Positions 261 through 16,259 of a stretch of DNA of 23,441 nucleotides are shown here, one piece after another. The notes beneath the pieces are model-generated. The model saw only the letters and a list, made by a program, of their open reading frames with translations. It searched no databases and was not told the DNA's origin. Origin of the DNA: Kofleriaceae bacterium (GTDB lineage: Bacteria > Myxococcota_A > Polyangia > Haliangiales > Haliangiaceae); NCBI GenBank assembly GCA_046597055.1, contig JBKJLC010000261.1, positions 1 to 23,441 of the forward strand, written 5' to 3'. How positions within the stretch are numbered: position 1 is the first letter of the stretch; the number at the start of each line of letters is the position of its first letter. A program made the translations under genes and the position numbers.

Positions 261-752
261 TCAGCGGGCGCTGACGGCGAGCGTCCGGTAGCCGCGCCGG
301 TAGTAGACGAGCGGGGTCCGGTCGGGATGGGCCACCGCCTCCACGACCCGGCCGATGACGATCGCGTGATCGCCGACCGCCATCTCGCCATGGAGCTCGC
401 AGTCGAGGTAGGCGATCGCGCCGTGGACGACCGGCATCCCGGAGGTGGTGCGGTCTTCGGCGACGCCCTCGAAGGTCGGGGTCGGCTCGCGCCCGGACCG
501 GGCAAAGGCGGACGAGGCGTCGCCCTGATCGGACGACAGCAGGCTGACCGCGAACCGCTGCGACGCGCGCATCATCGGCGGCATCCGGCTGCTGCTGGCG
601 ATGCACACGATCACCAGCGGGGGCTCGAGGGACAGCGACGCGAAGCTCGAGACGGTCATGCCGTAGACCAGCCCGCCGGCGCGGGTGGCGACGATCGACA
701 CGCCCGAGGCCCACGAGGCGAGGGCGTCCTTGAAGTCGCTGGTGAGCGCCAT
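261..752 (-). CDS. Flavin reductase-like protein (HpaC/HsaB family), 163 aa
   Basis: C-terminal part of ORF 261..1799. MALTSDFKDALASWASGVSIVAT, SFASLSLEPPLV, GDHAIVIGRV and PLVYYRRGY are typical of the family. AGGAG Shine-Dalgarno upstream of ATG 752. Confidence 0.9.
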   Translation of the reverse strand: MALTSDFKDALASWASGVSIVATRAGGLVYGMTVSSFASLSLEPPLVIVCIASSSRMPPMMRASQRFAVSLLSSDQGDASSAFARSGREPTPTFEGVAEDRTTSGMPVVHGAIAYLDCELHGEMAVGDHAIVIGRVVEAVAHPDRTPLVYYRRGYRTLAVSAR

Positions 753-766
753 CGTGTGCTCCTGGA

Positions 767-1945
767 TCAGGCCGGGCCGCGCGGCAGGCCGAGCGCCCGC
801 GCCGCGATGATGTTGCGCTGGATCTCGCTGGATCCCGCGTAGATGGTGTCGGCGCGCGAGAACAGGAACGTCTCCTGCAGCGCGGTGAGCGTGTAGGGCT
901 CGCCCGCGATGATCTCGGCGTCGGCGCCGAGCACGTCCATCGCCAGCTCGCCGAGCTTGCGGTGCCAGGTCGACCAGAACAGCTTGCCGCCGAGCGCCTC
1001 GCGCGGCAGCTCGCCGCCCTCGCCGTGGCCCAGCACGCGCAGCGCGTTCCACCGCATCACCCGCAGGCCGATCCAGGCGTCGGCGAGGCGCTGGCGGAGC
1101 TGCGGATCGCGATCGGCGCCGCTCCGGCGCGCGACGTCGATGATCGCGTCGAGCTCGGAGGCGAAGCCGATCTGCTGGCCGAGCGTCGACGCGCCGCGCT
1201 CGAAGGCGAGGGTCGACATCGCGACCTTCCAGCCCGCGCCGATCGCGCCGACCACGTGGTCCTCGGGGGTGCGGGCGCCATCGAAGAACACCTCGCAGAA
1301 CTCGGCGGTGCCGGTCAGCTGGCGGATCGGGCGGACGTCGATGCCGGCCTGGCGCATCGGCACCAGCAGGTACGACAGGCCGTCGTGCCGGCGCGCGCCG
1401 GTGCTGGTGCGGCACAGGACGAAGCACCAGTCGGCGACGTGCGCGTGCGAGGTCCAGATCTTCTGGCCGGTGATGTGCCAGTGGCCGTCGACCAGCTCGG
1501 CGCGGGTCGACACGCCGGCGAGATCGCTGCCGGCGCCGGGCTCGGAGTAGCCCTGGCACCACAGCTGCTCGCCGCGCGCGATCGCGGGCAGGAACCGGGC
1601 CTGCTGCGCGGGCGTGCCGAGCGCGGCGATGGTCGGGGCCAGCAGGAACTCGCCGATGTGGCCGACCCGGCCCGGCGCCCGCGCCCGCGCGTACTCCTCG
1701 TGGAAGATCACCTGGCGCAGCAGGGACGCGCCGCGGCCGCCGGCGGCGCTGGGCCAGCCCAGGCCGATCCAGCCGGCGGCGCCGAGCGCGCGCTCCCAAC
1801 CGGTGCGCTCGGTGACGTCCTCGTGCTCGCGGCCGGGGCCGCCGCGGCCGCGCAGGTGCCGGAATTCGCCGTCGAGCCGGGTCTCGAGCCAGGTCCGTAC
1901 CTCGAGGCGAAAGGCCTCGTCGTCGGGCGAGAAGCGCAGGTCCAT
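767..1945 (-). CDS. Acyl-CoA dehydrogenase, IpdE1/FadE30-like subunit, 392 aa
   Basis: MDLRFSPDDEAFR start. GGPGREHE, WCQGYSEPGAGSDLA, GQKIWTS, FERGASTLGQQI and LFSRADTIYAGSSEIQRNII closely recall FadE30. ATG overlaps the upstream stop (TGATG). Confidence 0.88.
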   Translation of the reverse strand: MDLRFSPDDEAFRLEVRTWLETRLDGEFRHLRGRGGPGREHEDVTERTGWERALGAAGWIGLGWPSAAGGRGASLLRQVIFHEEYARARAPGRVGHIGEFLLAPTIAALGTPAQQARFLPAIARGEQLWCQGYSEPGAGSDLAGVSTRAELVDGHWHITGQKIWTSHAHVADWCFVLCRTSTGARRHDGLSYLLVPMRQAGIDVRPIRQLTGTAEFCEVFFDGARTPEDHVVGAIGAGWKVAMSTLAFERGASTLGQQIGFASELDAIIDVARRSGADRDPQLRQRLADAWIGLRVMRWNALRVLGHGEGGELPREALGGKLFWSTWHRKLGELAMDVLGADAEIIAGEPYTLTALQETFLFSRADTIYAGSSEIQRNIIAARALGLPRGPA

Positions 1946-3117
1946 CAGGGCACTCCGGTCATGCGCGGCGCGGTGGCGACGCCGAGGCCGAGCATACGCG
2001 CGACCTGCTCGCGATGGTGCGCGGGCGAGCCGAGCACGGTGCGACCGGCGCGCGCGCGCTTGAAGAACAGGTGGGCGTCGTGCTCGAAGGTGAAGCCGAT
2101 GCCGCCGTGGACCTGGATGGTGTCGGCCGCGCACTGGAAGAACGCGTCGCCGCAGTACGACCCGGCCGCCGCCGCCGCGGCGTCGAGCTCGTCGGGGGCG
2201 TGGGCCGCAGCCCAGCCCGCGTAGTACGCCGCCGAGCGCGCCGACTCGACCAGCACGAACAGCTCGGCCAGGGTGTGCTGGATCGCCTGGAACGAGCCGA
2301 TCGGGCGGCCGAACTGGTGGCGGACCTTGGCGTACTCGACCGACAGATCCAGGCAGCGCTGGGCGCCGCCGACCTGCTCGGCGGCCAGGCCGATGTGACC
2401 GAGCGCGAGCGCGCGCGCGATGGCGGGCCAGCCGCCGGCCCCGAGCGCGGCGCTGGCCGGGACCCGCACGTCGGTGAACCCGACCTCGGCCAGGGCGCGG
2501 GTCGCGTCCATGGTCGGCAGCCGGTGACGCTGCACGCCGGGGGTGGCGGCCGGGACCGCGTAGATTGCCAGGCCCTCGGTGCCCGCGCTGCCCGGCGCGC
2601 GCGCGATCACCAGCAGCAGGTCGGCGGTGTGGCCGTCGATGACGAAGCGCTTGGTGCCGTCGAGGATGATCTCGCCACCGGCGGCCGAGCGCGCGGTGGT
2701 CGTGATCGCCGCCGGATCGGGATCGCCGCTGGCCTCGAGCCAGGCCAGCGCCGCGGTGCCGTCGCCGCGCGCGATCGGCGGCAGCAACCGCGCGTGCTGG
2801 TCGGCGGTGCCCGTTTCGAGGATCGCGGCGGTCGCCAGGCACGCGGTCGACAGGAACGGCACGCACGCGAGCGCGCGGCCGAGCTCCTCCATCACCGCGA
2901 CCAGCTCGACCCAGCCGAGGCCGGCGCCGCCGTGCGGCTCGGGCACGATCAGCCCGGCCAGCCCGATCTCGCGCGCCAGCACCCGCCACAGCGGGGCGTC
3001 GTGATGGTCGGCGGTGAGCATCGCGCGCCGGGCCCCGGCGACTCCGCCGCCCGCGTCGAGGATGCGGCGGACGCTGCGCCGCAGCTCGTCTTGCTCGTCC
3101 GTGAACGCGAACCGCAT
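1945..3117 (-). CDS. Acyl-CoA dehydrogenase, IpdE2/FadE33-like partner subunit, 390 aa
   Basis: MRFAFTDEQDELR, TMDATRAL, LAAEQVGGAQRCL, RHQFGRPIGSFQAIQH, IQVHGGIGFTFEHDAHLFFKRA. Coupled to the IpdE1-like gene as in heteromeric ACADs. Confidence 0.82.
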   Translation of the reverse strand: MRFAFTDEQDELRRSVRRILDAGGGVAGARRAMLTADHHDAPLWRVLAREIGLAGLIVPEPHGGAGLGWVELVAVMEELGRALACVPFLSTACLATAAILETGTADQHARLLPPIARGDGTAALAWLEASGDPDPAAITTTARSAAGGEIILDGTKRFVIDGHTADLLLVIARAPGSAGTEGLAIYAVPAATPGVQRHRLPTMDATRALAEVGFTDVRVPASAALGAGGWPAIARALALGHIGLAAEQVGGAQRCLDLSVEYAKVRHQFGRPIGSFQAIQHTLAELFVLVESARSAAYYAGWAAAHAPDELDAAAAAAGSYCGDAFFQCAADTIQVHGGIGFTFEHDAHLFFKRARAGRTVLGSPAHHREQVARMLGLGVATAPRMTGVP

Positions 3118-3126: not shown

Positions 3127-3140
3127 TAGAACATGTTCCA
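3127..3140. promoter_or_regulatory. KstR-type operator TAGAACATGTTCCA
   Basis: Exact match to TnnAACnnGTTnnA. Lies 9 bp upstream of the ACAD start, in a divergent intergenic region. Confidence 0.85.
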
Positions 3141-3269: not shown

Positions 3270-4175
3270 ATGGTGCGTCTCCTCGAGGGTCGAGTCGCGA
3301 TCGTCACCGGCGCCGCGCGCGGGCTGGGCCGATGCCACGCGCTGGAGCTCGCGCGCCACGGCGCGCGCGTCGTCGTCAACGATCTGGGGGTCGAGCCGGA
3401 CGGGACCGGCGGCGCCAGCGGGCCGGCCGACCAGGTCGTCGCCGAGATCCGGACCAGCGGTGGCGAGGCGATCGCCAACGGCGACGACGTCGCCGACTGG
3501 GACGGCGCGCGTCGGATGATCGCGGCCGCGGTCGACACCTGGGGCCGGCTCGACGTGCTGGTCAACAACGCTGGCTTCCTGCGCGATCGCATGTTCGCCA
3601 ACGCCAGCGAGGACGAGTGGGACGCGGTCATGCGGGTCCACCTCAAGGGCCACTTCGCGCCGGCCCGGCACGCGGCCGGCCACTGGCGTGACGCCGCCAA
3701 GCGCGGCGAGCCGGTCGACGCGCGCATCATCAATACCACCTCGGGCGCCGGCCTCCAGGGCAGCATCGGCCAGGCCGCCTACGCCGCGGCCAAGGGCGGC
3801 ATCGCGGCGCTGACGCTGGTGCAGGCCGCCGAGCTCGGCCGCTACGGCGTGACCGCCAACGCGATCGCGCCGGCCGCGCGCACGCGCATGACCGAGACCG
3901 CGTTCGCCGCGGCGATGAAGGCGCCCGACACCGGCTTCGATGCGATGGCGCCCGACAACGTGTCGCCGCTGGTCGCCTGGCTGGCCAGCGCCGAGTCGCG
4001 CACGATCAGCGGCCGGGTGTTCGACGTCTCCGGCGGCACCATCGCCGTCGAGGACGGCTGGCGGCCGGGCCCGAAGGTCGAGCGCGACGCGCGCTGGGAC
4101 GCCCGCGAGCTCGGCGGCGTGGTGACCGAGTTGGTCGCGAGCGCGCCGGTGCCGGCCCCGGTCTGGGGGGCGTGA
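3270..4175 (+). CDS. Short-chain dehydrogenase/reductase, Rv3548c-like, 301 aa
   Basis: TGAARGLG Rossmann motif, NNAG and YAAAK catalytic motif. RDRMFAN..DEWDAVMRVHLKGHF and NAIAPAARTRMTE recall sterol-cluster SDRs. Confidence 0.88.
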   Translation: MVRLLEGRVAIVTGAARGLGRCHALELARHGARVVVNDLGVEPDGTGGASGPADQVVAEIRTSGGEAIANGDDVADWDGARRMIAAAVDTWGRLDVLVNNAGFLRDRMFANASEDEWDAVMRVHLKGHFAPARHAAGHWRDAAKRGEPVDARIINTTSGAGLQGSIGQAAYAAAKGGIAALTLVQAAELGRYGVTANAIAPAARTRMTETAFAAAMKAPDTGFDAMAPDNVSPLVAWLASAESRTISGRVFDVSGGTIAVEDGWRPGPKVERDARWDARELGGVVTELVASAPVPAPVWGA

Positions 4176-5599
4176 GCGTGCGCACCGCGGCGGCCTGCGC
4201 GCTGGCGCTCGCGGCCTGTGGTGGCGGCGAAGGCGACGCTGAGGGTCGCCTGCCCGAGGCGCGGCGCTGCGCGATCGACGCCCCACCTCCGGGCGCGCTG
4301 CACGCCGAGGGTACTCGCATCGTCGACGACGCCGGCCGCACGGTCACCCTGCGCGGGATCAACACCGGGGGCCGCGCCAAGTTCGCGCCGTACGCGCCGT
4401 TCGAGTACGCCGAGGGCGGCTACGACGCCGCGCTCGCCGCCTACCTCGATCGCGCGGCGAGCTGGGGCTTCGACGTCCTGCGGGTGCCGTTCTCGTGGCA
4501 CGCGCTGGAGCCGATCCGCGGCGAGGTCGACGAGGCCTACCTGGCCCGCTACGACGCGCTCCTCGACGGCGCGTGGGCGCGCGGGATGTGGACGATCGTC
4601 GACTTCCACCAGGACGTCTACGCCGAGCCGCTGTGTGGCGACGGCTTTCCGTCGTGGACGCTGGTCGATCCCCCGGCGCCGCGTCGCGACTGCCCCAACT
4701 GGGCGCACGGGTACGAGAACGACCCGCGCGTGCAGGCCGCGTTCGATGGGTTCTGGTCCGACGCGACCGGCGTGCAGACGGCGTTCCGCGCGATGTGGAC
4801 GCGCATGGTCGCGCGGCACCGGGCGCGCCCGGGCGTGATCGGCTACGAGCCGATCAACGAGCCGCATCCGGGCACCGGCGACCGCATCGCGTGGGAGGAG
4901 GGCCCGCTGACCACGTTCTACAGCGAGATGGCCGCGCTGATCAACGCAGGCGATCCGGGCGCGCTGGTGTTCGTCGACACCACCGGCTTCGAGGCCGTGA
5001 TCGGCCAGACCTCGCTGCGACGTCCGAGTGGTGACGGCATCGTGCTGGCGCCGCACTCGTACGATGCCGGGGCGCTGCTCGGCGGCGACCCTGACCCCGA
5101 CGTGCACGCGCGGCTGGCCAAGTGGGCTGCGCTCGGCGCGACGTGGGACGCGCCGGTGCTGATCGGCGAGATGGGCATGCCGGTCGACAACCCGCACGCC
5201 GCGATGCACGGGCGCCGGCACATGGATGCGCTCGATCAGCTCGGGATCGGCGCGACCTGGTGGGAGTACAGCGTGTCGTCCGAGCTGTGGAACCACGAGA
5301 ACTTCTCGATCGTCGCGGCCGACGGCACCGAGCTGCCGATCGTCGACGAGCTGGCGCGGCCGTACCCGCGCGCGCTGGCCGGCACGGCGCCGGTGGCGAG
5401 CTACCGGCCCGAGCCGGGTCGCTTCACGATCGAGTGGGCCCCGGCTGGCGACGCGCCGACCGAGCTGGCGGTGCCGACCCGCTGGGGTGCGGTCCGCATC
5501 GGCGCCGAGGGCGCGTGCGTCGCCGAGGCGGCCGGCACCGTGCGGGTCCAGGCCGACCCCGGTGCGACGCTCGTGCGCGTGTCGATCGAACGGAAGTGA
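4172..5599 (+). CDS. GH5 glycoside hydrolase lipoprotein, endoglycoceramidase-like, 475 aa
   Basis: Lipobox LAAC (Cys16). LRGIN, SWHALEP..G..DEAYL, DFHQDVY, GDGFP.W, INEP (acid/base), PHSY, IGEMG (nucleophile), RPYPRA. GTGA overlap with the SDR stop. Confidence 0.85.
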   Translation: MSVRTAAACALALAACGGGEGDAEGRLPEARRCAIDAPPPGALHAEGTRIVDDAGRTVTLRGINTGGRAKFAPYAPFEYAEGGYDAALAAYLDRAASWGFDVLRVPFSWHALEPIRGEVDEAYLARYDALLDGAWARGMWTIVDFHQDVYAEPLCGDGFPSWTLVDPPAPRRDCPNWAHGYENDPRVQAAFDGFWSDATGVQTAFRAMWTRMVARHRARPGVIGYEPINEPHPGTGDRIAWEEGPLTTFYSEMAALINAGDPGALVFVDTTGFEAVIGQTSLRRPSGDGIVLAPHSYDAGALLGGDPDPDVHARLAKWAALGATWDAPVLIGEMGMPVDNPHAAMHGRRHMDALDQLGIGATWWEYSVSSELWNHENFSIVAADGTELPIVDELARPYPRALAGTAPVASYRPEPGRFTIEWAPAGDAPTELAVPTRWGAVRIGAEGACVAEAAGTVRVQADPGATLVRVSIERK

Positions 5600-6160: not shown

Positions 6161-7729
6161 TCAGGACTGCAGGAGGCGGGCGCGCAGCTCGGTCTTGAGG
6201 ACCTTGCCGGACGCGTTCTGGGGCAGACGGTCGACGATCTCGAACCGGCGCGGGACCTTGTAGTTGGCCATGCGCGCGCGGCTCCAGGCCAGCAGCTCGG
6301 CGGGGTCGGGCGCGGTGTCGGGGCGCGGGACCACGAAGGCGATGCCGACCTCGCCGAGGCGGTCGTCGGGGGCGCCGACCACGGCGACCTGGGCGATGCC
6401 CGGGTGACGGAGCAGCACGCCCTCGATCTCGGCCGGGTAGGCGTTGAAGCCGCCGACGATGAACATGTCCTTCTTGCGATCGGTGATGCGCAGGTAGCCG
6501 CGCGCGTCGAGGGTGCCGATGTCGCCGGTGCGCAGCCAGCCGGCCGCGTCGATGGTGGCGGCGGTGGCCTCGGGGTCGTCGAGGTAGCCGCGCATGACGT
6601 TGTAGCCGCGCACGACCACCTCGCCGGCGACGCCGGTGGCGACCGGCACGCCGGCGTCGTCGACGATCGCGACCTCGACGCCGGGGATCGCGCGGCCCGA
6701 CGTGGTCGCGACGGTCTCGGCGTCGTCGCCGTCGCGGCACAGGGTCGCGGTGCCGGTGGTCTCGGTGAGGCCGTAGCCGGTGAGCACGGTGGCGAAGCCG
6801 AGGTCGGTGCCCATGCGGCGCACCAGCTCGACCGGCACGTTGGCGGCGCCGGTGACCGCGAGCCGCAGCGACGAGAGATCGACCGCGGCGCGGCCGGGGT
6901 GGGCGAGCAGCGCCAGGTACAGCGTCGGCGGGCCGGGCAGGACCGTGATGCGGTGCTCGGCGATCTGCGCCATCACGCGCTCGACGTCGAACACCGGCGC
7001 CGGATACACGATGGCGCCGGTCTGCAGCGCGGCCAGCCAGCCGGCCTTGTAGCCGAAGCTGTGGAAGAACGGCGCGACCACCAGGTAGCGGTCGCCGTGG
7101 CGGAGCCCGACCAGCTCGCCCCAGGTCGCGAACACGCGCAGGGTCTGGGCGTGGGTGGCCGGGATCGCCTTGGGCCGGCCGGTGGTACCCGAGGTGAACA
7201 TGAGGTCGCCGACGTCGTCGGGGCTGACCGCGGCCGCGGCTCGCGCCAGCTCGGCGTCGGTCACCGCCGCACCGCGCGCGACCAGCGCGGCCCAGCCGAT
7301 CGCCGCGTCGTCGGCCTCGCCGGTCACGGCGATCGTGGTCAACGCCGGCAGCGCCACGCCGCTCGCGCGCAGCATCGCCGGGTAGCGCGCGCCCAGGAAG
7401 TCACCGACCGTGATCAGCACGCGCGCGCGGCTGCGGGCCAGCACGTCGGCGGCCTCCGCGCCCTTGTAGCGGGTGTTGATCGGCACCAGCACCGCGCCGA
7501 TCGTGTGCGCTCCGAGCGCCGCGACGATCCACTGCCAGCAGTTGGGCGCCCAGATCGCGACCGCGTCGCCGTGGCCGACCCCGCTCGCGAGCAGCGCGCG
7601 GGCGAGCTCGTCGGCCCGCGCCGCCAGCGCCGCGGTGGAGAGTCGGACCTCACCGTCGACCACCGCCAGCTCGTCGGGCCGGTCGAGCGCGGCCCGGGCG
7701 AGCAGCCCCCCGATCGTGGCCGCGGTCAT
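6161..7729 (-). CDS. fadD3: Acyl-CoA synthetase, FadD3-like (HIP-CoA ligase), 522 aa
   Basis: MFTSGTTGRPK AMP-binding motif, PFFHSFGYKAG, ITVLPGPPT, AVTGAA, YGLTE, CRDGDDAETVATTSGR, TGDIG, KDMFIVGGFNAYPAEIE. ATGA overlap with the upstream gene. Confidence 0.82.
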   Translation of the reverse strand: MTAATIGGLLARAALDRPDELAVVDGEVRLSTAALAARADELARALLASGVGHGDAVAIWAPNCWQWIVAALGAHTIGAVLVPINTRYKGAEAADVLARSRARVLITVGDFLGARYPAMLRASGVALPALTTIAVTGEADDAAIGWAALVARGAAVTDAELARAAAAVSPDDVGDLMFTSGTTGRPKAIPATHAQTLRVFATWGELVGLRHGDRYLVVAPFFHSFGYKAGWLAALQTGAIVYPAPVFDVERVMAQIAEHRITVLPGPPTLYLALLAHPGRAAVDLSSLRLAVTGAANVPVELVRRMGTDLGFATVLTGYGLTETTGTATLCRDGDDAETVATTSGRAIPGVEVAIVDDAGVPVATGVAGEVVVRGYNVMRGYLDDPEATAATIDAAGWLRTGDIGTLDARGYLRITDRKKDMFIVGGFNAYPAEIEGVLLRHPGIAQVAVVGAPDDRLGEVGIAFVVPRPDTAPDPAELLAWSRARMANYKVPRRFEIVDRLPQNASGKVLKTELRARLLQS

Positions 7730-8313
7730 GCCGCGGCGGACTGGGTGTGCGCGCGCTCGAGGTGCGCGGCGATCTTGTTGGCGAGGTCCTCGGCGGCCGG
7801 GAGCAGCGCCGGGCCGAGCATCGCGTTGACCAGCGGCCCGGTCGGTCCGCCCGCATCCATGCGCAGGGTGAACGTGAGCCGGGTGCCGGCGACGCGCTCG
7901 CCGGTGAGCCGCTTGGGCCCGTCGCCGTGCATGCGGCGGAACATGCGGCGGGCCATCCAGTCGAGGATGCGGCGGCCGAACCAGCGCCGCTTCGGCTTGA
8001 CCGGGGCCGGTGCGTCGGCGGTGACGCCCTCCATGACCAGCACGCCGCCGCCATCGACCTTCTCGTTGAGGCCGGTGAGCGTGAAGGTGACCCGCTCGCC
8101 GTCGACCCACTCGGTGACGTGGGCTTGCAGGCGCACGACCCGCGACAGGATCCCGACGTCGCCCTTGAGGGTCCACACCGAGTCGGTGTCGTCGAGGATC
8201 TCGTGCTTCTGGTAGCCGGTCAGCATCGGCGCCCAGTTGTTCATGTCCTTGACGAACTGCCAGACGACGTTGCCGGGCAGGGCGATGCGGGTGGCGTACT
8301 CGACCTCGGGCAT
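7726..8313 (-). CDS. SRPBCC/CoxG (START-like) domain protein, 195 aa
   Basis: VWQFVKDMNNWAPMLTGY N-terminus, beta-rich core and C-terminal helix (GPLVNAMLGP..AEDLANKI). GGAGG Shine-Dalgarno; operonic between kstD-like and fadD3-like genes. Confidence 0.72.
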   Translation of the reverse strand: MPEVEYATRIALPGNVVWQFVKDMNNWAPMLTGYQKHEILDDTDSVWTLKGDVGILSRVVRLQAHVTEWVDGERVTFTLTGLNEKVDGGGVLVMEGVTADAPAPVKPKRRWFGRRILDWMARRMFRRMHGDGPKRLTGERVAGTRLTFTLRMDAGGPTGPLVNAMLGPALLPAAEDLANKIAAHLERAHTQSAAA

Positions 8314-8322: not shown

Positions 8323-9978
8323 CTACTTCTGCTCGCGGGCGGCGGCGTGGCGACCGGCCAGGTAGCCGAACGTCATCGCCGCGCCGATGGTGGCGCCGGC
8401 ACCCGGGTAGCCGGCGCCGGTCACGCCGGCCATGACGTTGCCGGCCGCGTACAGCCCGGCGATCGCGGTGCCGTCGGGGCGCAGCACGCGGGCGTCGCCG
8501 TCGGTACGGGCGCCGCCCTTGGTTCCGATCGCGCCGGGGTGGACCTGGATCGCGTAGAACGGCGCCTTCTCGACCGTGCCGAGGTTCGGGTTCGGCTTGT
8601 GGTCGGGGTCGCCGTAGAAGTGATCGTAGAGGCTCTCGCCGCGGCGGTAGTCGGGGTCGGCGCCCTCGACCGCGAACCGGTTGAACCGGGTCACGGTCGC
8701 GGTCAGGCCGCGCGGGTCGACGCCGATCATGGCCGCCAGCGCCTCGAGCGTGTCGGCCCGGGTCAGCCACTCGGGGATCGGCATGCCGGGCACGTACGTC
8801 ATCAGCGCGTACCGATCGAGGTACTGCTGATCGACGATGATCCAGGCCGGCAGGTTGCGGCGCTCGTAGGCGACCGGGTCGAAGGCGAAGAACGCCTTCA
8901 TCAGATCGTTGTAGTTGTGGGCCTCGTTGACGAACCGCTGGCCGGCGCGATTGACGATCACGCTGTGGGGTAGGGAGCGGGTCGCGAAGTCGCCGCGGTT
9001 GAGCGGGCGCTGGTCGTACTCCTCGCCAGGGATCTCGAGCGACGGGCACCACCACGCCTCGCTCATGTTGCCGAGGTCGGCGCCGAGCGACATCGCCATC
9101 TTCAGGCCGTCGCCCTCGAGCGACGGGGGGCTGTTGGGGTGGGTGAGCGGGCCACCCAGGAACCGGCGGCACAAGTCAGGGTTCCACTCGAAGCCGCCGC
9201 TGGCGAGGACCACGCCGCGCCGGGCGCTGATCAGGATCTCCTTGTCGCCCTGCCGGGCCCGGACGCCGACCACCCGATCGTCGTCGACCAGCAGCTCGTC
9301 GGCCGCCGCGCCCAGCATCGGCTCGATGCCGCGATCGAGCAGCGCCTTCAGCAGGCCGCCGGCGAGCGCGCCGCCGTAGCAGACCAGGCCCTGCTTGAAC
9401 CGCTTGCCGAGCAGGCTGAACGGCAGCGCCTGCGGCTTGGAGAACACGCCCCAGTCGGTCGCCTCGCTGACCGACATGGCGGTCATGCCGAACACCGGCG
9501 AGCGGCGCAGCTTGTCCTTCCAGGTCCCGAGCGTGTTGGTGTCGAACAGGCCGGGATCGAGCGAGCGGCCCCCGGAGCGGCCCCCGGCGAACTCCGGATG
9601 ATAGTCGGGGTAGCGGGCCAGCGCCTTGAAGGCGATCGGGGTGGCGCCCTCGACGAAGTCGAGCATCTCGGGCGCGGTCTCGAGGTAGCGGCGGATGAGC
9701 GCCGGCTCGCTGCGACCGTCGGCCAGCCGGGTGACGTACCCGATCGCCTCGTCGAGTGAGTCGGCGATGCCGAGCGCGGCCATGTGCTTGTTGCACGGCA
9801 CCCAGACCACGCCGCCGGACACGGCGGTGGTGCCTCCGAACTTGTCGGTCTTCTCGAGGACGGCGACCCGGGCCTTGCCGGCGTGGGCGGCGAGGGCGGC
9901 GACCGCCCCGGCGGCGCCACTGCCGATCACCACGACGTCGACCTCCAGGTTCCACTTGATCGACTTACGAAACCACAT
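8323..9978 (-). CDS. kstD: FAD-dependent 3-ketosteroid delta1-dehydrogenase-like protein, 551 aa
   Basis: DVVVIGSGAAG, GGTTAVSGGVVWVP, YPDYHP, GVVLASGGFE, RFVNEAHNY, GTKGG, GLYAAGN and YPGAGATIG. The three Tyr-containing motifs of KstD appear present; Delta1 versus related specificity is not proven. Confidence 0.78.
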   Translation of the reverse strand: MWFRKSIKWNLEVDVVVIGSGAAGAVAALAAHAGKARVAVLEKTDKFGGTTAVSGGVVWVPCNKHMAALGIADSLDEAIGYVTRLADGRSEPALIRRYLETAPEMLDFVEGATPIAFKALARYPDYHPEFAGGRSGGRSLDPGLFDTNTLGTWKDKLRRSPVFGMTAMSVSEATDWGVFSKPQALPFSLLGKRFKQGLVCYGGALAGGLLKALLDRGIEPMLGAAADELLVDDDRVVGVRARQGDKEILISARRGVVLASGGFEWNPDLCRRFLGGPLTHPNSPPSLEGDGLKMAMSLGADLGNMSEAWWCPSLEIPGEEYDQRPLNRGDFATRSLPHSVIVNRAGQRFVNEAHNYNDLMKAFFAFDPVAYERRNLPAWIIVDQQYLDRYALMTYVPGMPIPEWLTRADTLEALAAMIGVDPRGLTATVTRFNRFAVEGADPDYRRGESLYDHFYGDPDHKPNPNLGTVEKAPFYAIQVHPGAIGTKGGARTDGDARVLRPDGTAIAGLYAAGNVMAGVTGAGYPGAGATIGAAMTFGYLAGRHAAAREQK

Positions 9979-9993
9979 GGGTGTGAGCAGAAG

Positions 9994-10007
9994 TGAAACA
10001 TGTTCTA
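9994..10007. promoter_or_regulatory. KstR-type operator TGAAACATGTTCTA
   Basis: Exact TnnAACnnGTTnnA between the divergent kstD-like and tetR genes. Confidence 0.85.
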
Positions 10008-10029
10008 GTAGAGCCGCGCAAGCAGCATC

Positions 10030-10043
10030 GAGAACATGTTGCG
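10030..10043. promoter_or_regulatory. Degenerate operator GAGAACATGTTGCG
   Basis: AACATGTT core conserved, outer T/A lost. Confidence 0.6.
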
Positions 10044-10059
10044 TTCCTCACGTACGGGT

Positions 10060-10073
10060 GCGAACCTGTTCCG
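10060..10073. promoter_or_regulatory. Degenerate operator GCGAACCTGTTCCG
   Basis: GAAC-CT-GTTC core immediately before the likely tetR GTG start. Confidence 0.5.
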
Positions 10074-10075
10074 AA

Positions 10076-10735
10076 GTGAGCGCAGCGAGCAAGGAGAAGG
10101 ATCGCGGTATCTTCGACAGGATCTTCGACGTCGCGATCTCGCTCGCTGAAGAGGGCGGCTACGACAACGTCCGCCAGCGCGACGTGGCGGCCCGGGCCGG
10201 GGTCGCCCTGGGCACGCTGTACAAGCGCTTCCGCAGCAAGGAAGACATCCTGTCCGCCGCGCTCGAGCGCGAGACCGAGAAGCTCGAGCGCAAGATCGAG
10301 AAGGGCCCGGTCCAGGGCGGCTCGGTCGAGGATCGCCTGGTCGCGTTCTATACGATGCTGACCAAGGCGCTGTGCCGGCGGCCCCACTTCGCGCGCGCGG
10401 TGCTGCGCGCGATGGCGTCGGGCCAGCCCGAGGTCGCCAAGCACGTGGTCGCCTATCAGGGCCGGATGAACGGCCTGATCATCGCCGCGATGCGCGGGGT
10501 CGGCAGCCTCAGCTACGGGGACGCAGCGGTGACCCCGCCCACCGAGCGCGAGCAGACGCTGGCGTTGCTGCTGCAGCAGATCTGGTTCGCGTCGCTGATC
10601 GGCTGGTCGGCCGGGCTGCACAGCCAGCCCGCGGTGCTCGAGCATGTCCGCACCGCCGCCCGGCTGTTCCTGCGGTCGCTCGATCTCGAGGCCAAAGAGC
10701 AGAAGCCGGCCAAGTCCGTCGCGACCGCGCGCTGA
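10076..10735 (+). CDS. kstR: TetR-family regulator, KstR-like, ~219 aa (start uncertain)
   Basis: HTH GGYDNVRQRDVAARAGVALGTLYKRFRSK recalls KstR GGYEAVQMRAVADRADVAVGTLYRYFPSK. C-terminal PTE.EQ..A....IW...L..W pattern is also KstR-like. Cognate operators adjacent. Confidence 0.8.
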   Translation: MSAASKEKDRGIFDRIFDVAISLAEEGGYDNVRQRDVAARAGVALGTLYKRFRSKEDILSAALERETEKLERKIEKGPVQGGSVEDRLVAFYTMLTKALCRRPHFARAVLRAMASGQPEVAKHVVAYQGRMNGLIIAAMRGVGSLSYGDAAVTPPTEREQTLALLLQQIWFASLIGWSAGLHSQPAVLEHVRTAARLFLRSLDLEAKEQKPAKSVATAR

Positions 10736-10758
10736 GCCGGTCGAGCCGGACACTCACC

Positions 10759-10876: not shown

Positions 10877-10951
10877 AGGGCCGGTTTCACGCGTGCGAGC
10901 TGTTTCGATCGACAAGCGAGCCGGCACCGAAATCTTGCTTGCTGGCTGGAA

Positions 10952-10965
10952 TGGAACATGTTCTA
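10952..10965. promoter_or_regulatory. KstR-type operator TGGAACATGTTCTA
   Basis: Exact reverse complement of 3127-3140. Palindrome extends to GAAT.GAACATGTTC.ATTC. Upstream of the Mce/Mla operon. Confidence 0.85.
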
Positions 10966-11103
10966 TTCAGCCTCGACCGCAGTCGCGCATCGGTGCGCGG
11001 CCGCCCGGCCGTGCTCGACGAGCCGGCCTCGGTGCGCGGCCCTGCCACGCAGGCAACCGTCAGGTCGCGAGCCGGGACTACACGCCAGCATGTCGAGCGG
11101 CGC

Positions 11104-11117
11104 TAGAACATGTATCA
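11104..11117. promoter_or_regulatory. Near-consensus operator TAGAACATGTATCA
   Basis: One mismatch to TnnAACnnGTTnnA, 57 bp before the ATPase start. Confidence 0.65.
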
Positions 11118-11174
11118 CTCGCGCCCGGCCCCACCCGCTGGGTGCGCCGATGCCGTGGCGCCACCTGGTGAGCG

Positions 11175-11876
11175 ATGCCCGCTGACGATCGCGGCTGGGC
11201 GGTCGAGCTGGTCGAGGTCGACAAGCGCTTCGGCGCCCGCCGCGTGCTCGGCGACGTCACCCTGCGGGTCGCCCGCGGCGGCCGGCTCGGCATCATCGGC
11301 CCGGCCGCGGCCGGCAAGAGCGTGCTGCTCAAGCTGGTGGCCGGGCTGCTGCGCCCCGACGGCGGCAGGGTCCACGTCAGCGGTCGCATCGGCATGCTGT
11401 TCCAGAACAGCGCGCTGTTCGACTTCCTCACCGTCGCCGAGAACGTGGCGTTCCCCCTGGTGCAGGCGGGCGGCGTCGCCGACGACGAGATCGCGGCGCG
11501 GGTCGCGGCCCGGCTCAAGGCGGTCGGCCTGGCTGGCTCCGAGCGCAAGGTGCCCTCGGAGCTGTCGGGTGGCATGAAGAAGCGGGTCGGCCTGGCCCGC
11601 GCCACCGTCGCCCGGCCCGAGGTCGTCCTCTACGACGAGCCGACCGCCGGGCTCGACCCGGTCACGACCGCCAAGGTCTATCAGCTCCTGCGCGACGATC
11701 ACGATGCCGGCGGTGGCACCGCGATCGTGGTGTCGTCGGACGTCGAGGCCGTGGCCGGGTTCGCCGACACCATCGCGTTCGTCGACGACGGCCGGGTCCG
11801 CTGGGTCGGGCCCGCGGTCAGCCTGCTCGACGCCGACGACCCGCAGGTGCGCGCGTTCGCGCGGGGGACCGCATGA
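11175..11876 (+). CDS. ABC ATPase, MlaF/MceG-like (1), 233 aa
   Basis: [43 protein letters not shown]. Confidence 0.9.
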
Positions 11877-12649
11877 ACCTGCGCGGCTCGGTCGCCGCGC
11901 TCGGCGGGCGCACCATGGGCGCGGCCCGCGACGCCGGCGGCATCGTCGTGCTCGCGTACGAGGTCGGGCGCTCGCTGGTGCCGCCGCGGCTCGACGGCCG
12001 CGAGCTGATCCGCAACCTCTACAAGATGGGCTTCAAGTCGGTGCCCATCGTGGTCATGACCGCGCTGTTCGTGGGCGCGCTGATGGTGATCCAGTTCGCC
12101 GCGTTCGTGAAGCAGTACGGCGCCACCGGCATGATCGGCTGGGGCACCGGCTACGCGGTGCTGCGCGAGGTCGGCCCGCTCCTGATCGGCCTGATGTTCT
12201 CGGGTCGGGTCGGCGCCAACAACGCCGCTGAGCTGGGCACGATGACGGTCACCGATCAGATCGACGGCCTGCAGGCGCTGGCGATCGATCCGATCCGCTA
12301 CCTGATCGTGCCGCGGGTGCTGGCGATGATGATCACGCTGGTGGTCATGACGATGATCGGCGACGCGGTCGCGATCTGCGGCGTGATGCTGGCGTCGCAC
12401 GCGCTGCTCGACATCCACCCGTACACGGTCTGGTACGGGCTGGTCGACAACCTCGGCGCCGGCGACTTCCTGCACGGCATGGCCAAGGCGCTCGTGTTCG
12501 GCGCCGCGATCGCGCTGTCGTCTTGCTACTACGGCCTGACCGTCCAGGGCGGCGCGGTCGGGGTCGGTCGCGCGGTCAACTCGGCGGTGGTGAGCGCCGC
12601 GGTGTCGATCTGCTTCCTCGACTTCCTCATGACGTACCTCACCAACTGA
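11873..12649 (+). CDS. MlaE/YrbE-family permease (1), 258 aa
   Basis: [58 protein letters not shown] overlap. Confidence 0.92.
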
Positions 12650-12654
12650 GCCCC

Positions 12655-13464
12655 ATGTCTGCCCTCCGTCGCACCGTCACCTCCGTCGGCGCCAGCACCC
12701 TGGCCACCGTCGCGGCGGCCACCGAGCTGGCCTCGGTCGCGGCCCAGACCGTGGCGGGCGCGGTGTTCGGCTACTGGCGTGGCAAGCGGCCGCGTGGCGC
12801 GATCGCGCGCCAGCTCTACCTCATCGGCAACCGCTCGCTGCCGTTCGTGCTGGTCACGCTCGGGTTCGTCGGGATGGTGATGGTCTACCAGACCTGCCTC
12901 CTCACCACCCGGATCGTCGACGGCCGCAACCAGGTCGGCCAGCAGTGGGCCCGCCTGCTGGTGCTCGACGTCGGACCCAGCCTGACCGCGATGATGCTGG
13001 CGACCCGGGTCGGCGCCGGCATCGCCGCCGAGATCGGGTCGATGAAGGTGACCGAGCAGCTCGACGCCCTGCAGATGTCGGGGGTGACGCCGATCCGCTA
13101 CCTGATCGTCCCGCGCTTCTTCGCCTGCGTGATCATGACGGTGGTCCTGACCATGTTCGGCATGGCCGCGTCGTGGGCGGCCGGCGGGGTGACCGGCTAC
13201 TACTCGTTCCAGATCAACCCGCGCATCTTCTTCGACCTGGCGATGGTGAAGCCGGCCCACGTCGCGGTGTGCCTGGTGAAGGCGCTCGCGTTCGGCGCGG
13301 CGATCCCGATCGTGAGCGGCTTCTGCGGCCTGCGCGCGCGCGGCAGCTCGGAGGGCGTGGGCGGCGCCGCCACCGCGGCGGTGATCGGCTCGAGCTTCGC
13401 GGTGCTGGTGCTCGACGTCCTGATCTCGTGGGGGGCGCTGGTCCTGTTCGGAGCCGGGATGTGA
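12655..13464 (+). CDS. MlaE/YrbE-family permease (2), 269 aa
   Basis: [48 protein letters not shown]. Confidence 0.92.
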   Translation: MSALRRTVTSVGASTLATVAAATELASVAAQTVAGAVFGYWRGKRPRGAIARQLYLIGNRSLPFVLVTLGFVGMVMVYQTCLLTTRIVDGRNQVGQQWARLLVLDVGPSLTAMMLATRVGAGIAAEIGSMKVTEQLDALQMSGVTPIRYLIVPRFFACVIMTVVLTMFGMAASWAAGGVTGYYSFQINPRIFFDLAMVKPAHVAVCLVKALAFGAAIPIVSGFCGLRARGSSEGVGGAATAAVIGSSFAVLVLDVLISWGALVLFGAGM

Positions 13465-14213
13465 TCGAGCTCCGCGGCGTACACAAGGCGTTCGGGGGCC
13501 GGCCGGTGCTGGCCGGGGTCGATCTGATGGTCGGCCGCGGCGAGGTGGTGTGCGTGGTCGGCACCTCCGGCGTCGGCAAGTCGGTGACGATCAAGCACCT
13601 GGTCGGCTTCCTGCGGGTCGACGCCGGCGAGATCTGGTTCGACGGTCGCCGCATCGACGACCTGCCCGACCGCGAGTTCGCCGCGATCCGGCGCCGGATC
13701 GCGATGGTGTTCCAGAGCTCGACCCTGTTCGACGCGATGACCCTGGCCGAGAACGTCGCGCTGCCGCTGCGCAAGCACCGCCGCATGCGGGCGGGCGCCG
13801 CGCTGGTCGAGGCCCGGCGCCGGCTCGAGGAGGTCCACCTCGCCGAGCTCGGCGACCGATACCCGGCCGAGGTGTCCGATGGCGTGCGCAAGCGGGCCGC
13901 GATCGCGCGGGCGCTGACGATCGAGCCCGAGGTCGTGCTGTTCGACGAGCCGACCACCGGCCTCGACCCGACCAGCGCGCGCCGGATCGACCGCCTGATC
14001 CGCGAGCTCGCCGATCGCCGCGGCGTCACCGCGATCGTGGTGTCGCACGATCTCACCTCGATCTTCGCGATCGCCGATCGGATCGCGCTGCTCTACCGCG
14101 GCGTGGTCCACGCCTGCGGCACCCCCGGCGAGATCCGCGCCTCGGCGGACCCGGTCGTCCTCCAGTTCATCCATGGCCGCGCCGCCGGGCCCATGGAAAC
14201 CCCCGGCTTCTAG
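13461..14213 (+). CDS. ABC ATPase, MlaF/MceG-like (2), 250 aa
   Basis: GTG overlapping the upstream stop. GTSGVGKS, MVFQSSTLFD, VSDGVRKRAAIARAL, LFDEPTTGLDP, VSHD. Confidence 0.9.
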   Translation: MIELRGVHKAFGGRPVLAGVDLMVGRGEVVCVVGTSGVGKSVTIKHLVGFLRVDAGEIWFDGRRIDDLPDREFAAIRRRIAMVFQSSTLFDAMTLAENVALPLRKHRRMRAGAALVEARRRLEEVHLAELGDRYPAEVSDGVRKRAAIARALTIEPEVVLFDEPTTGLDPTSARRIDRLIRELADRRGVTAIVVSHDLTSIFAIADRIALLYRGVVHACGTPGEIRASADPVVLQFIHGRAAGPMETPGF

Positions 14214-14221
14214 GAGCTCCC

Positions 14222-15238
14222 ATGCGTGACGACGGCGTCGAGTACAAGGTCGGGTTGCTGATGGTGACGGCGGTGGCGCTGTTCGCCGTGTTCATCTTCG
14301 TGCTCGGGCGGTTCTCGCTCAGCAGCGGGTTCACGCTGTACGCGGACTACGAGTACAGCGGCAACGTCCAGACCGGGGCGCCGGTGAAGGTCTCGGGCAT
14401 CACGGTCGGCCGGGTCGAGGCGGTCGAGTTCCGCGGCGGCCAGCTCGATCCGGCGACCGGCCGGCGGGTCCAGGTCCGGGTCGAGCTGTGGATCGAGGAC
14501 CGCGCCCGCGACTCGATCCGCGGCGACGCCGAGTTCTTCGTCAACACCGCCGGTGTGCTCGGCGAGCAGTACGTCGAGATCGTGCCGGGCCGGAACTGGG
14601 AGGCGCCGCCGCTGGCGGCGGGCTCGATCATCGTCGGGGTCACCCCGCCGCGCACCGACCTGGTGGTCGCGCGGCTGTACGAGCTGCTCGACATCATGAC
14701 CGCGGTGATGCGCAAGGATCGCGACAAGATCGCGGCGATCATCACCAACGCGGCGCACGCGGTCGACCAGGTTGACGGGATCCTGGTCGAGAACCGGCCC
14801 AAGGTCGGCGGCCTGATCGACGCGGTCACCGGGCTCGCGCTCGAGAGCCAGCAGGTGCTGGCCAAGGTCGACGATGGCCTCGATAGCCGCCAGATCGCGG
14901 CGACCCTGCGCCACGCCGACGGCCTGCTGGTCACCGCCGACAAGACGCTGGCCGAGGCCGGTCCGGCGACCGGCGCGCTGATGCGCGAGGGCGTGCGGGT
15001 GCTCGAGCTCGCCACCGAGGCGCGGGTCGAGCGAACCCTGGTCGCGGTCGATCGCGCGGCCGGCGCCGCCGACCAGGCCGGGACGCTCATGCGCAACGCC
15101 AACGGCGCGCTCACCGACGTCCGGGCCGGCAAGGGCTCGATCGGCGCGTTGCTCACGCGGCTCGACGTCTACGCCGACGTCCGCGAGATGGTGCGCGACC
15201 TGCGGCGTAACCCGTGGAAGCTGATCTGGAAGGAGTGA
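14222..15238 (+). CDS. MCE/MlaD-domain protein with helical extension (1), 338 aa
   Basis: N-terminal TM (KVGLLMV...), GAPVKVSGITVGRV, TAGVLGEQYVEIVPG. AGGAG Shine-Dalgarno. Confidence 0.9.
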   Translation: MRDDGVEYKVGLLMVTAVALFAVFIFVLGRFSLSSGFTLYADYEYSGNVQTGAPVKVSGITVGRVEAVEFRGGQLDPATGRRVQVRVELWIEDRARDSIRGDAEFFVNTAGVLGEQYVEIVPGRNWEAPPLAAGSIIVGVTPPRTDLVVARLYELLDIMTAVMRKDRDKIAAIITNAAHAVDQVDGILVENRPKVGGLIDAVTGLALESQQVLAKVDDGLDSRQIAATLRHADGLLVTADKTLAEAGPATGALMREGVRVLELATEARVERTLVAVDRAAGAADQAGTLMRNANGALTDVRAGKGSIGALLTRLDVYADVREMVRDLRRNPWKLIWKE

Positions 15239-15242
15239 CCGG

Positions 15243-16259
15243 GTGGCGCTCAAGATCCACGACGAGCGGCTGACCCGTCGGGTCGGCGCGGCCGTGCTGG
15301 TGGGGGCCGCGCTGACCGTGCTCTTCGTGGCGATCATCTTGCCGCGGCTGGTCCGCGACGGCGTGACCGTGCGGGTCCGGTTCGGCGCGGTGGTCGGCCT
15401 GACCGAGGGCGCCGCGGTCCAGCTGGCCGGGCGCGACATTGGCCGGGTCCGCTCGATCGTGATCGCACCGGCCCACGGCGGCGTCGTCGTCGAGCTCGCG
15501 ATCGACCGCGAGTGGGCGGCGCGGGTGCCGGTCAACTCGGACTTCTTCGTCGACGCCCGCGGGATGCTGGGCCCGCGCTACCTCGCGATCGGCCCGCCGC
15601 GGGCGGGGGCGGCGCCCGCGCGCGGCCTGGTCGACAACGACCAGGTCACCGGGGTCGATCCGCCCAACCTCGACAACGTGCTCCAGCGCGCCTATGACAG
15701 CCTCGAGGAGGTCGCGCGCTTCGTCGAGGCGATCGCGCCGGCCGCGGCCCTGATCGAGGCGGCGTCGGCTCGACTCGGCACCACCATCCGCGGGCTCGAC
15801 CCGCGCCCGGGCGCGTCGGACGAGCTGGCGCGGACGGTCCGCGAGGTGACGCACACCGCCGACACCCTGATCACCGACCTGCGCGGCGGACGGATCGATC
15901 CGGCGGCGCTGGCCCGGCTGGTGGCCGGCATCGAGGCGCTGGCTGCGCGCGTGGATGGGGTGGCGACCGAGCTGCGCGGCCAGGTCGCGGTGGTGCAGGC
16001 CGCCGTCGACCGGGTCGGAGCGGCGCTGCCGGCCCCGCTGCGCGCGCGGGTCGAGCGGGTGATGGTGGGCGTCGACAGTGGGCTGGCACAGGCGCAGCAG
16101 CTGGCCGGGCAGATGCGCGGCGTGATCGCGGACGCCACCACCGGGGTCGGTACGATCGCGGCGTTCGGGGCCGACCTGGAGCTGGTCGACAACGTGCGGG
16201 AGCTGACGAAGGACCTGAAGCGCAAGCCGTGGCGCCTGGCCGTGCCGCCGCCGCAGTGA
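15243..16259 (+). CDS. MCE/MlaD-domain protein with helical extension (2), 338 aa
   Basis: N-terminal TM, GLTEGAAVQLAGRDIGRV, GMLGPRYLAIGP. Confidence 0.88.
   Translation: MALKIHDERLTRRVGAAVLVGAALTVLFVAIILPRLVRDGVTVRVRFGAVVGLTEGAAVQLAGRDIGRVRSIVIAPAHGGVVVELAIDREWAARVPVNSDFFVDARGMLGPRYLAIGPPRAGAAPARGLVDNDQVTGVDPPNLDNVLQRAYDSLEEVARFVEAIAPAAALIEAASARLGTTIRGLDPRPGASDELARTVREVTHTADTLITDLRGGRIDPAALARLVAGIEALAARVDGVATELRGQVAVVQAAVDRVGAALPAPLRARVERVMVGVDSGLAQAQQLAGQMRGVIADATTGVGTIAAFGADLELVDNVRELTKDLKRKPWRLAVPPPQ

Follow-up and report, generated by a model that had tools for sequence, protein, structure and literature searches.

Myxococcota are known as sterol makers. Aerobic steroid degradation has been placed in Actinobacteria and Proteobacteria by two surveys (Bergstrand 2016, PMC4810484; Holert 2018, PMC5790920), as far as the available parts of these papers go; their main texts contain neither 'myxo' nor 'Deltaproteobacteria', and former Deltaproteobacteria could hide under 'Proteobacteria' in the supplements or online charts. 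In mycobacteria, Rv3548c–Rv3565 are under KstR2 and not KstR, with a site between Rv3549c and echA20 (PMC3068626), Nocardioides has both KstR and KstR2 motifs (PMC7593942) and Comamonas relies on the TesR/TeiR regulators (PMC6678751), according to the accessible sections of these three papers. Steroid degradation or KstR in myxobacteria is unmentioned in the accessible parts of a 2019 review and a 2026 comparative preprint, and no prior report was found in the literature searched, in which subscription journals are thinly covered. Here we analyse a stretch of 23,441 nucleotides (the window) of a Kofleriaceae bacterium, which carries a gene for a KstR-like TetR protein, steroid degradation genes and an ATP-binding cassette (ABC) transport operon. 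Judging from sequence comparisons, the locus probably belongs to a chromosomal, lineage-native KstR-type regulon for aerobic uptake of external sterols and their 9,10-seco degradation under one repressor, in Kofleriaceae and other Polyangia. The earlier note on this DNA, made from its letters alone, had proposed KstR-controlled sterol uptake and degradation in a Gram-negative myxobacterium; the native locus, the grouping of the regulator with KstR and the genome-wide presence of pathway and operators support that proposal. The components are familiar; within the literature searched, the novelty lies in the host phylum, the wiring in a single tier, uptake of the Mla type and the F420 cassette.

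Regulator, operators and wiring

By sequence and predicted fold, the TetR protein is a divergent KstR relative, with KstR as the nearest characterised protein. Its best PDB match is KstR (E 3e-19; next unrelated TetR 2e-8), Foldseek ranks 1–10 for its predicted fold are KstR throughout (TM 0.77/0.90) and PF17925 is over cut-off; the identity to actinobacterial KstR is ~30%. A profile was built from 37 myxobacterial TetR sequences, and the next proteins it reached are KstR-like; two helix-8 tryptophans are invariant in the myxobacterial proteins of this profile, as placed by the KstR alignment. Two trees, a FastTree tree of 168 rows and an IQ-TREE subset of 63 rows, unite the myxobacterial proteins in one clade (99/96) inside the KstR clade (98/95), which stands apart from three KstR2 references; the phylogeny therefore bears out the KstR-like assignment made earlier. 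The IQ-TREE result, in which 31 rows have no taxon and the unnamed rows were chosen by the myxobacterial profile, is compatible with a myxobacterial clade either sister to or nested among the KstR-like proteins.

The pattern TnnAACnnGTTnnA occurs exactly at 3127, 9994 and 10952, that is, three times in the window; 100 shuffles averaged 0.01 matches and never gave as many as 3. Six intergenic sites had been noticed earlier; all six are indeed intergenic, but only four are strong (three exact, one with one mismatch), one is weak and conserved and one is doubtful (Table 1). The core of operator 2 is unchanged in 13/13 aligned promoters, and an own-promoter site lies within -400..+50 of the TetR gene in 21 of 37 named loci. 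A sigma-70 promoter scan of 9900–11250 gave 0 matches. Across the whole genome (G000), the loose operator pattern has 50 matches, from which the pattern TRRAACRYGTTYYA was refined; this has 18 matches on 7 contigs, 16 of them intergenic, and most front steroid-pathway genes.

Regulator, operators and pathway occur together. The TetR gene (E < 1e-50) is present in 15 of 41 relatives; 13 of these 15 have 12–44 sites, whereas the 26 TetR-negative genomes have 0–5, and it is also present in all five further operator-rich genomes tested. Across the class (401 genomes), three or more strict sites are found in 46/47 echA20-positive vs 2/354 echA20-negative genomes, and a reversed-pattern control was never above 3 sites. 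One genome flagged as unpublished (G314) counts only in the 401-genome denominators and among the 64 of 354 genomes with PF17932 mentioned below. In one genus of 3–5 Mb genomes (g50 of family f21; L131–L140, L145–L147), all 24 sampled genomes have echA20, cofG and 3–10 strict sites, and the cluster of one of them (G096) is compact; for this genus, the use of sterols may be a core trait. The idea of a predatory lineage finds no support: 26 of the 47 echA20-positive genomes are from one family, mostly with genomes of 3–5 Mb.

The wiring differs from that of mycobacteria, because FadD3, IpdE1/E2 and Rv3548c of the window belong to the mycobacterial KstR2 regulon (PMC3068626, available parts). The region upstream of echA20 has an exact KstR-type site in 12/12 close and 21/21 further genomes (33 examined of 49 known positives), and a KstR2 site at up to one mismatch in 0 of these 33. 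An exact KstR site is missing from this position in all four actinobacterial controls, of which Nocardia and Tsukamurella carry a one-mismatch KstR2 site and Nonomuraea carries neither kind. The Rv3549c/echA20 gap of Tsukamurella (L070 near 44537) contains a one-mismatch KstR-like site as well. No KstR2 orthologue was found in the 41 genomes (a Nocardia KstR2 query gave only matches of E >= 2e-15 and at most 31% full-length identity). With 11 candidates scored per genome, G000 has no KstR2-type domain PF17932, and the domain is not enriched with the pathway (9/47 echA20-positive vs 64/354 negative genomes). G000 has three exact KstR2 motifs, none on C1, C48, C117 or C298. These results point to a single tier, with KstR-type sites preceding upper- and lower-pathway genes alike.

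Host, pathway and transport

The window is contig C1 of G000, a metagenome-assembled genome (MAG) of 8.38 Mb in 303 contigs, 94% complete, with 7.6% contamination and a coding fraction of 86% in the gene calls of this analysis. In an S3 ribosomal-protein search, where 5 of 120 rows have a taxon, identity is 86% to Kofleriaceae, 85% to Haliangium sp., 84% to Haliangiales and 83% to H. ochraceum; a further row, with 89%, bears the label Gemmatimonadaceae, possibly in error. At least 26 matches of the MYXO-CTERM hidden Markov model (HMM) are over cut-off in G000 (150 of 271 candidates scored), some of them on the operator-bearing contigs C70 and C161. Orthologues with 81–86% identity are present in 7 of 16 same-genus genomes, and gene order is conserved in the closest named loci. 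The 37 named TetR loci, MAGs throughout, are titled mostly Kofleriaceae (74–85%), Polyangiaceae/Polyangiales (54–69%), Myxococcales or Myxococcota, and six are titled 'bacterium' or 'Proteobacteria' only; these loci and our genomes are drawn from overlapping collections, so the counts are not additive. On these matches, the genome is that of a myxobacterium of the Kofleriaceae/Haliangiales, in line with the Myxococcota host deduced earlier, and the locus is lineage-native; an actinobacterial or chimeric contig is rejected.

All the steroid genes named in the earlier note are present in the window by profile, PDB or identity matches (Table 1). The flavin reductase has 33–37% identity to genes at the hsaB position in actinobacteria, and its partner HsaA is on C117. 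The Nocardia gene at the fadE30 position has 63% identity to IpdE1 and that at the fadE33 position 43% to IpdE2. The best PDB match of the KstD-like protein is a 3-oxosteroid 1-dehydrogenase. The SRPBCC/CoxG gene is kept between kstD and fadD3 in Kofleriaceae-like loci; a Pfam search of its product gave no match. The names IpdE1 and IpdE2 follow the actinobacterial gene order, and the Rv names follow similarity and order vs the Nocardia, Tsukamurella, Streptomyces and Nonomuraea loci, together with the mycobacterial gene order.

Table 1. Features of the window, and gene groups behind operators on other contigs of the same genome. SDR, short-chain dehydrogenase/reductase; HIP, methylhexahydroindanedione propionate; CoA, coenzyme A; PWM, position weight matrix; GMC, glucose-methanol-choline.
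Feature	Position	Strand	Evidence and context
HsaB-like flavin reductase	261..752	-	PF01613 E 1e-40; NCBIfam HsaB 109 bits (below cut-off 230)
IpdE1 (FadE30-like) acyl-CoA dehydrogenase, C/D-ring	767..1945	-	63-66% to Nocardia, Nonomuraea, Streptomyces genes adjoining ipdF
IpdE2 (FadE33-like) acyl-CoA dehydrogenase subunit	1945..3117	-	NF050027 199 bits (below cut-off 450); 43-47% to syntenic actinobacterial gene
Operator 1 TAGAACATGTTCCA	3127..3140		exact; between divergent ipdE2E1-hsaB and Rv3548c-like SDR; same position in related loci
Rv3548c-like SDR	3270..4175 (alternative start 3192)	+	PRK07791 474 bits (above cut-off 373); 63-66% to actinobacterial genes
GH5 endoglycoceramidase-like lipoprotein, accessory	4172..5599	+	PF00150; NF051847 138 bits (below cut-off 700)
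FadD3, HIP-CoA ligase	6161..7729	-	NF005801 732 bits (above cut-off 657)
SRPBCC/CoxG (START-like) protein, candidate sterol carrier	7726..8313	-	Atlas 0.97 to SRPBCC/CoxG clusters
KstD-like 3-ketosteroid delta-1-dehydrogenase	8323..9978	-	PDB 7p18 E 4e-105; NCBIfam KstD 497 bits (below cut-off 789)
Operator 2 TGAAACATGTTCTA	9994..10007		exact; between divergent kstD and TetR gene (autoregulatory position)
Degenerate secondary site GAGAACATGTTGCG	10030..10043		2 mismatches; kept in ~8/13 aligned promoters (counted by eye)
Weak degenerate site GCGAACCTGTTCCG	10060..10073		2 mismatches; poorly conserved, doubtful
KstR-like TetR repressor (predicted)	10076..10735	+	best NCBIfam model KstR; PDB, fold, tree
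Operator 3 TGGAACATGTTCTA	10952..10965		exact; upstream of transport operon; equivalent site in related loci
Operator 4 TAGAACATGTATCA	11104..11117		1 mismatch; PWM 21 bits
MCE/Mla-type ABC system, six genes	11175..16259	+	MlaE/MlaF/MlaD domains
mlaF	11175-11876	+	
mlaE	11873-12649	+	
mlaE	12655-13464	+	
mlaF	13461-14213	+	
MCE proteins, two, 338 aa each	14222-15238, 15243-16259	+	
Genes behind sites	C48		Rv3521-ltp4-ltp3-fadE26-fadE27; kshA; Rv3549c-cofG-cofH
Genes behind sites	C48		ipdF-maoC-maoC-Rv3520c-like-fno-cofE-(cofD, named by position only)-cofC
Genes behind sites	C48		echA20-ipdA-ipdB-ipdC-echA13-like-fadE31
Genes behind sites	C117		echA19 divergent from cyp125-hsaA-hsaC-hsaD-hsaE-hsaG-hsaF + FadE pair
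Genes behind sites	C298		SCP2, aldehyde dehydrogenase, ferredoxin; fadD19-kshA-SDR-amidohydrolase-kstD
Gene behind site	C161		GMC oxidoreductase

The earlier description of the pathway as incomplete holds for the window alone and not for the genome, where kshA, hsaA/C/D and ipdAB are found on C48, C117 and C298; the proposed genome scan for the operator and the remaining 9,10-seco genes thus turned up both. The 9,10-seco set (kshA x2, kstD x2, hsaA–G) is spread over several contigs, and KshA, KstD, HsaA, HsaC, HsaD and HsaE/F/G were all found, most of them below equivalog cut-offs. The side-chain set contains cyp125, fadD19, echA19, ltp3/4 and fadE26/27 (ChsE4/5), and there are 13 C/D-ring genes; the C/D-ring (HIP) proteins present are FadD3, IpdAB, IpdC, IpdF, EchA20, FadA6, IpdE1E2 and FadE31/32. 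The remainder of fadE31, followed by fadE32 and fadA6, is at the end of C117, and this order is uninterrupted in G004 and G023. For each of the two Rieske proteins, the best PDB match is KshA (E 2e-65 and 4e-50). The P450 is matched best by a reconstructed CYP125 ancestor (E 1e-166 vs 1e-103 for extant CYP124/125), a match limited by the general tendency of ancestral reconstructions to attract divergent sequences; this ancestor favours phytosterols according to the available part of its description (PMC12100521).

The F420 biosynthesis genes and the Rv3520c-like F420 enzyme are inside the same cluster on C48, and cofG is found in 43/47 echA20-positive vs 24/354 echA20-negative genomes. Of the four positives without cofG, two (G026 and G029) are also without the Rv3520c-like enzyme, and the other two (G001 and G032, in more than 1,000 contigs each) have it. 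Rv3520c has been tied to KstR (PMC1995591) and listed as an F420-dependent oxidoreductase of the cholesterol pathway (PMC12855090); no defined reaction for it was found in the available parts of the literature examined.

The transporter, on these comparisons, is a regulon-specific duplicate of a widespread, native myxobacterial Mla system: a second Mla copy at 78% identity or more is found only in nine operator-rich genomes of the family, and a 60–66% copy in most relatives. Its best PDB matches are to proteobacterial MlaE (E 8e-32), with mycobacterial YrbE1 (8e-20) behind. A Mce4-like transporter (YrbE4AB with six Mce proteins) was considered and rejected, since there are two MCE proteins only, the best PDB matches are to MlaE and nothing in G000 matches the MCE proteins of Nocardia Mce4. 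Where G000 has 10736–11174, most relatives (L026 10685–13894; L047 10620–13770) have three extra genes, for a divergent lipoprotein-like protein, a ~290-aa protein and a FadL/OMPP1-type channel; G000 lacks all three. The channel is present at 59% identity or more in nine other operator-rich genomes and also in the operator-poor G014. Genes of the fatty-acid-hydroxylase/sterol-desaturase family and DUF7802 follow the MCE operon in several relatives (L047 18946–20525) and are on C83 in G000.

In the model that we propose, one dimer of the KstR-like TetR would bind TRRAACRYGTTYYA 10–130 bp before ~15 promoters, its own included, and repress them; the sites and the protein family are seen directly, while binding and repression are predicted from KstR. 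Sterols would enter through the recruited Mla/MCE ABC system, to which most relatives would add a FadL-type outer-membrane channel, and the GMC oxidase or an SDR might possibly produce the 3-oxo form. By analogy, Cyp125 and FadD19 would yield a C26 CoA thioester that releases the repressor. The side chain, that of C24-branched plant- or fungal-type sterols included, would be shortened by FadE26/27, EchA19 and Ltp3/4; ring B would be opened by KstD and KshA, ring A removed by HsaAB/C/D/E/F/G and rings C/D degraded by FadD3, IpdF, IpdE1E2, IpdC, EchA20, IpdAB, FadA6 and FadE31/32. The Rv3520c-like F420 enzyme and the F420 biosynthesis genes belong to the same cluster. Unlike in actinobacteria, a second KstR2/HIP-CoA tier would be absent, the same operator standing before upper and lower genes.

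Some neighbouring genes deserve mention. The GH5 lipoprotein gene is co-oriented behind operator 1, and a GH5 gene is also behind an operator in one other of 53 annotated related loci (L035). Related GH5 enzymes include steryl-glucosidases, and by analogy the lipoprotein may release sterols from glycosides. The 792-aa secreted protein at 16316–18694 (+) has a visible MYXO-CTERM-like tail and is not among the 26 HMM matches. It was rejected as a part of the system: it is similar to heparinase II/III lyases, with lyases of the heparinase II/III-DUF4962 type and Myxococcota hypotheticals as its Atlas neighbours, and it is beside the operon in no related locus. The Ser/Thr kinase-WD40 protein and the FHA-sigma54 activator (18716–23277, -) are typical myxobacterial signalling genes with no tie to the regulon. 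Strong operators on C70 (L003–L004; 5330, 11614, 22445) precede uncharacterised genes, an SDR operon and dusB, and the C70 genes behind operators are candidates for sterol-related functions; a 1019-aa protein with EGF-like and Sushi repeats is encoded on the same contig (L003 361–3420).

Weighing the alternatives

Several results weigh against a complete, KstR-controlled sterol regulon. TetR, KstD, HsaA, HsaC and HsaD are below their NCBIfam cut-offs; the TetR protein scores 107 bits with the KstR equivalog NF033703 (cut-off 280), a model that Nocardia (335) and Tsukamurella (306) KstR pass and the Nonomuraea KstR-like protein (145) fails. Kinship among the genomes makes the co-occurrence counts non-independent, with 24 of the 47 echA20-positives coming from a single genus. 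More distant TetR homologues (42–56%) are mostly without sites and steroid neighbours; among 11 re-annotated loci, nine are distant homologues or low-GC, and eight of these nine have no steroid genes nearby. G011 and G021 have the TetR gene and one site each; these orphan homologues (L100, G011:C176; L101, G021:C5) are without a regulon, and that of G021 sits among genes matching rpoB and ribosomal-protein contigs. Four sites on C70 and C31 front genes without a known steroid role, and G000, like G003, lacks the FadL/OMPP1-type channel. A dedicated KshB was not found with our query in 11 of the 13 operator-rich genomes among the 41, the 94% complete G000 included; G032 and G039 carry a KshB orthologue, and G000 has two ferredoxin reductases in unrelated contexts. 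Ltp2 was not found in G000, where a model that we take to be Ltp2-type reaches 157 bits at best (cut-off 469). FadA5, Hsd4A and FadE34 have no clear orthologue there, and the gene at the FadA5 position matches FadA6 best (44%). Because of these gaps, full mineralisation may need substitute enzymes or may not occur.

The same gaps (KshB, Ltp2, FadA5 and FadE34) speak for the alternative that survives best, although we consider it unlikely: a real regulon that takes sterol conversion only part of the way (side-chain trimming, modification or detoxification), or that acts on short-side-chain steroids or HIP released by other bacteria. G039 (L098–L099, G039:C25:8000–45703; 3.4 Mb, 57–58% GC) fits this alternative, with the TetR gene, 12 sites, side-chain genes, kshA, a kshB-like gene and fadD3, and with no echA20 match; it is possibly a truncated version of the regulon. 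Against partial conversion, the ring-cleavage and C/D-ring genes are all kept together in several families, and there are candidate substitutes, namely the ferredoxin in the SCP2 operon, the unassigned FadE pair in the hsa operon and a pair on C31 (L144 2870–7101). This pair, an SDR-MaoC-SCP2x3 multifunctional protein and an SCP-x-like thiolase, is like eukaryotic peroxisomal side-chain enzymes, and is found behind another TetR gene in G000 and behind an operator in G039.

It is also improbable that the TetR is a general lipid/acyl-CoA regulator on the same palindrome, with a second regulator for the C/D-ring genes and control still in two tiers. In its favour, the arginine that we take to be a ligand contact of KstR aligns to a leucine, the C70 and C31 sites precede non-steroid genes, and homology searches are blind to a non-homologous second regulator. 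Mycobacterial KstR, too, is described as controlling diverse lipid genes in the accessible part of one paper (PMC1995591). Most sites, however, precede steroid-pathway genes, and no other TetR is seen in five annotated clusters, where the labels name best matches in G000 only. Recycling of the host's own sterols is very hard to credit: many myxobacteria make sterols (bioRxiv 10.1101/2024.11.01.621555, available part) and G405 has a squalene/oxidosqualene-type cyclase over cut-off, but no such cyclase was found in four of the five genomes tested (G000, 94% complete, G004, G023 and G096), which argues against sterol synthesis by G000 itself, and the uptake system is predicted to be co-regulated. 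Contamination, a chimeric assembly or a recent actinobacterial island, for which the 303 contigs, the 7.6% contamination and the tetranucleotide distances of C1 and C298 in the outer fifth (ranks 148 and 155 of 183) could be cited, has a negligible chance and is already largely refuted by orthologues at 81–86% in seven same-genus genomes and in several families of the class, by conserved loci, by an identity to actinobacterial KstR of only ~30%, by MYXO-CTERM matches on C70 and C161, and by the rank of the ribosomal-protein contig C267 (164 of 183), which makes those of C1 and C298 unremarkable.

Ancestry and comparison with known systems

Enzyme trees (10–18 rows, up to four actinobacterial and three proteobacterial taxa, Shimodaira–Hasegawa-like approximate likelihood ratio support only) place IpdA and EchA20 with actinobacteria (99, 100) and HsaA, FadD3 and IpdE1 with proteobacteria (100, 94, 97); plasmid searches concur for IpdA and HsaA. 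This suggests a mixed ancestry, either a mosaic or a third lineage, with sampling too thin for direction. The label 'actinobacterial-style' therefore suits the regulator, the operator and the side-chain genes, and fails for the Mla-type transporter and for HsaA, FadD3 and IpdE1.

A broader reading, which we offer tentatively and hold to be doubtful, is that the Polyangia represent an ancient third line of aerobic sterol degradation, in which a single-repressor regulon has been kept. KstR-only control would then predate the KstR2 tier, the pathway would be a link between the two known lineages and not a late actinobacterial transfer, KshA would work without KshB, and the Rv3520c-type step would matter so much that F420 synthesis was drawn into the cluster. 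The link rests on IpdAB, EchA20, the side-chain genes and KstR being near actinobacteria, on HsaA, FadD3 and IpdE1 being near proteobacteria, and on Cyp125 being nearer to the ancestor than to extant structures. About 12% of the sampled Polyangia genomes (47/401) point to sterol consumers; these would be a further sink for the membrane lipids of eukaryotes, overlooked so far. The KstR operator is conserved across phyla despite ~30% protein identity, in what would be a simpler one-repressor design, and the locus makes three questions testable: the role of Rv3520c-type F420 enzymes, the Gram-negative import of intact sterols and the origin of the 9,10-seco pathway.

Compared with the proteobacterial 9,10-seco clusters (Comamonas, Burkholderia, Caballeronia and Novosphingobium), the system shares a Gram-negative host and the grouping of HsaA, FadD3 and IpdE1, and in Novosphingobium ipdF is followed by MaoC as in the myxobacterial cluster. 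Unlike in myxobacteria, the four proteobacterial loci have 0–1 loose KstR-pattern matches and no KstR homologue, and Rv3521, Ltp3/4 and Rv3520c are unmatched in the stretches compared. The KstR2 regulon (Kendall 2010, PMC3068626, available part) has the same gene set, and the divergent Rv3549c/echA20 pair is found in 10/12 close genomes; its AnCAAGnnCTTGnT site is replaced by a KstR-type site in 33/33 genomes examined, and a KstR2 orthologue was not found.

The closest likeness is to the KstR regulon of Mycobacterium, Rhodococcus and Nocardia. The myxobacterial TetR differs in its ~30% identity, in its own clade (99/96) and in being divergent from kstD and not fadE34; the myxobacterial sites also front C/D-ring genes, F420 biosynthesis genes are inside the cluster, the transporter is of the Mla type with two MCE proteins, and kshB, ltp2 and fadA5 were not found. 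The two regulons are alike in a homologous TetR of the same predicted fold, in an autoregulatory site and in the same 14-bp palindrome (Kendall 2007, PMC1995591, available part), the site of the Nocardia kstR promoter (L067) being TAGAACATGTTCTA. Shared targets are cyp125, fadD19, echA19, ltp3/4, Rv3521, fadE26/27, Rv3520c, kshA, the hsa genes and an MCE transporter. In the last of these, the system resembles the Mla/MCE ABC lipid transporters in its MlaE, MlaF and MlaD domains and differs from them in having two permeases, two ATPases and two 338-aa MCE proteins.

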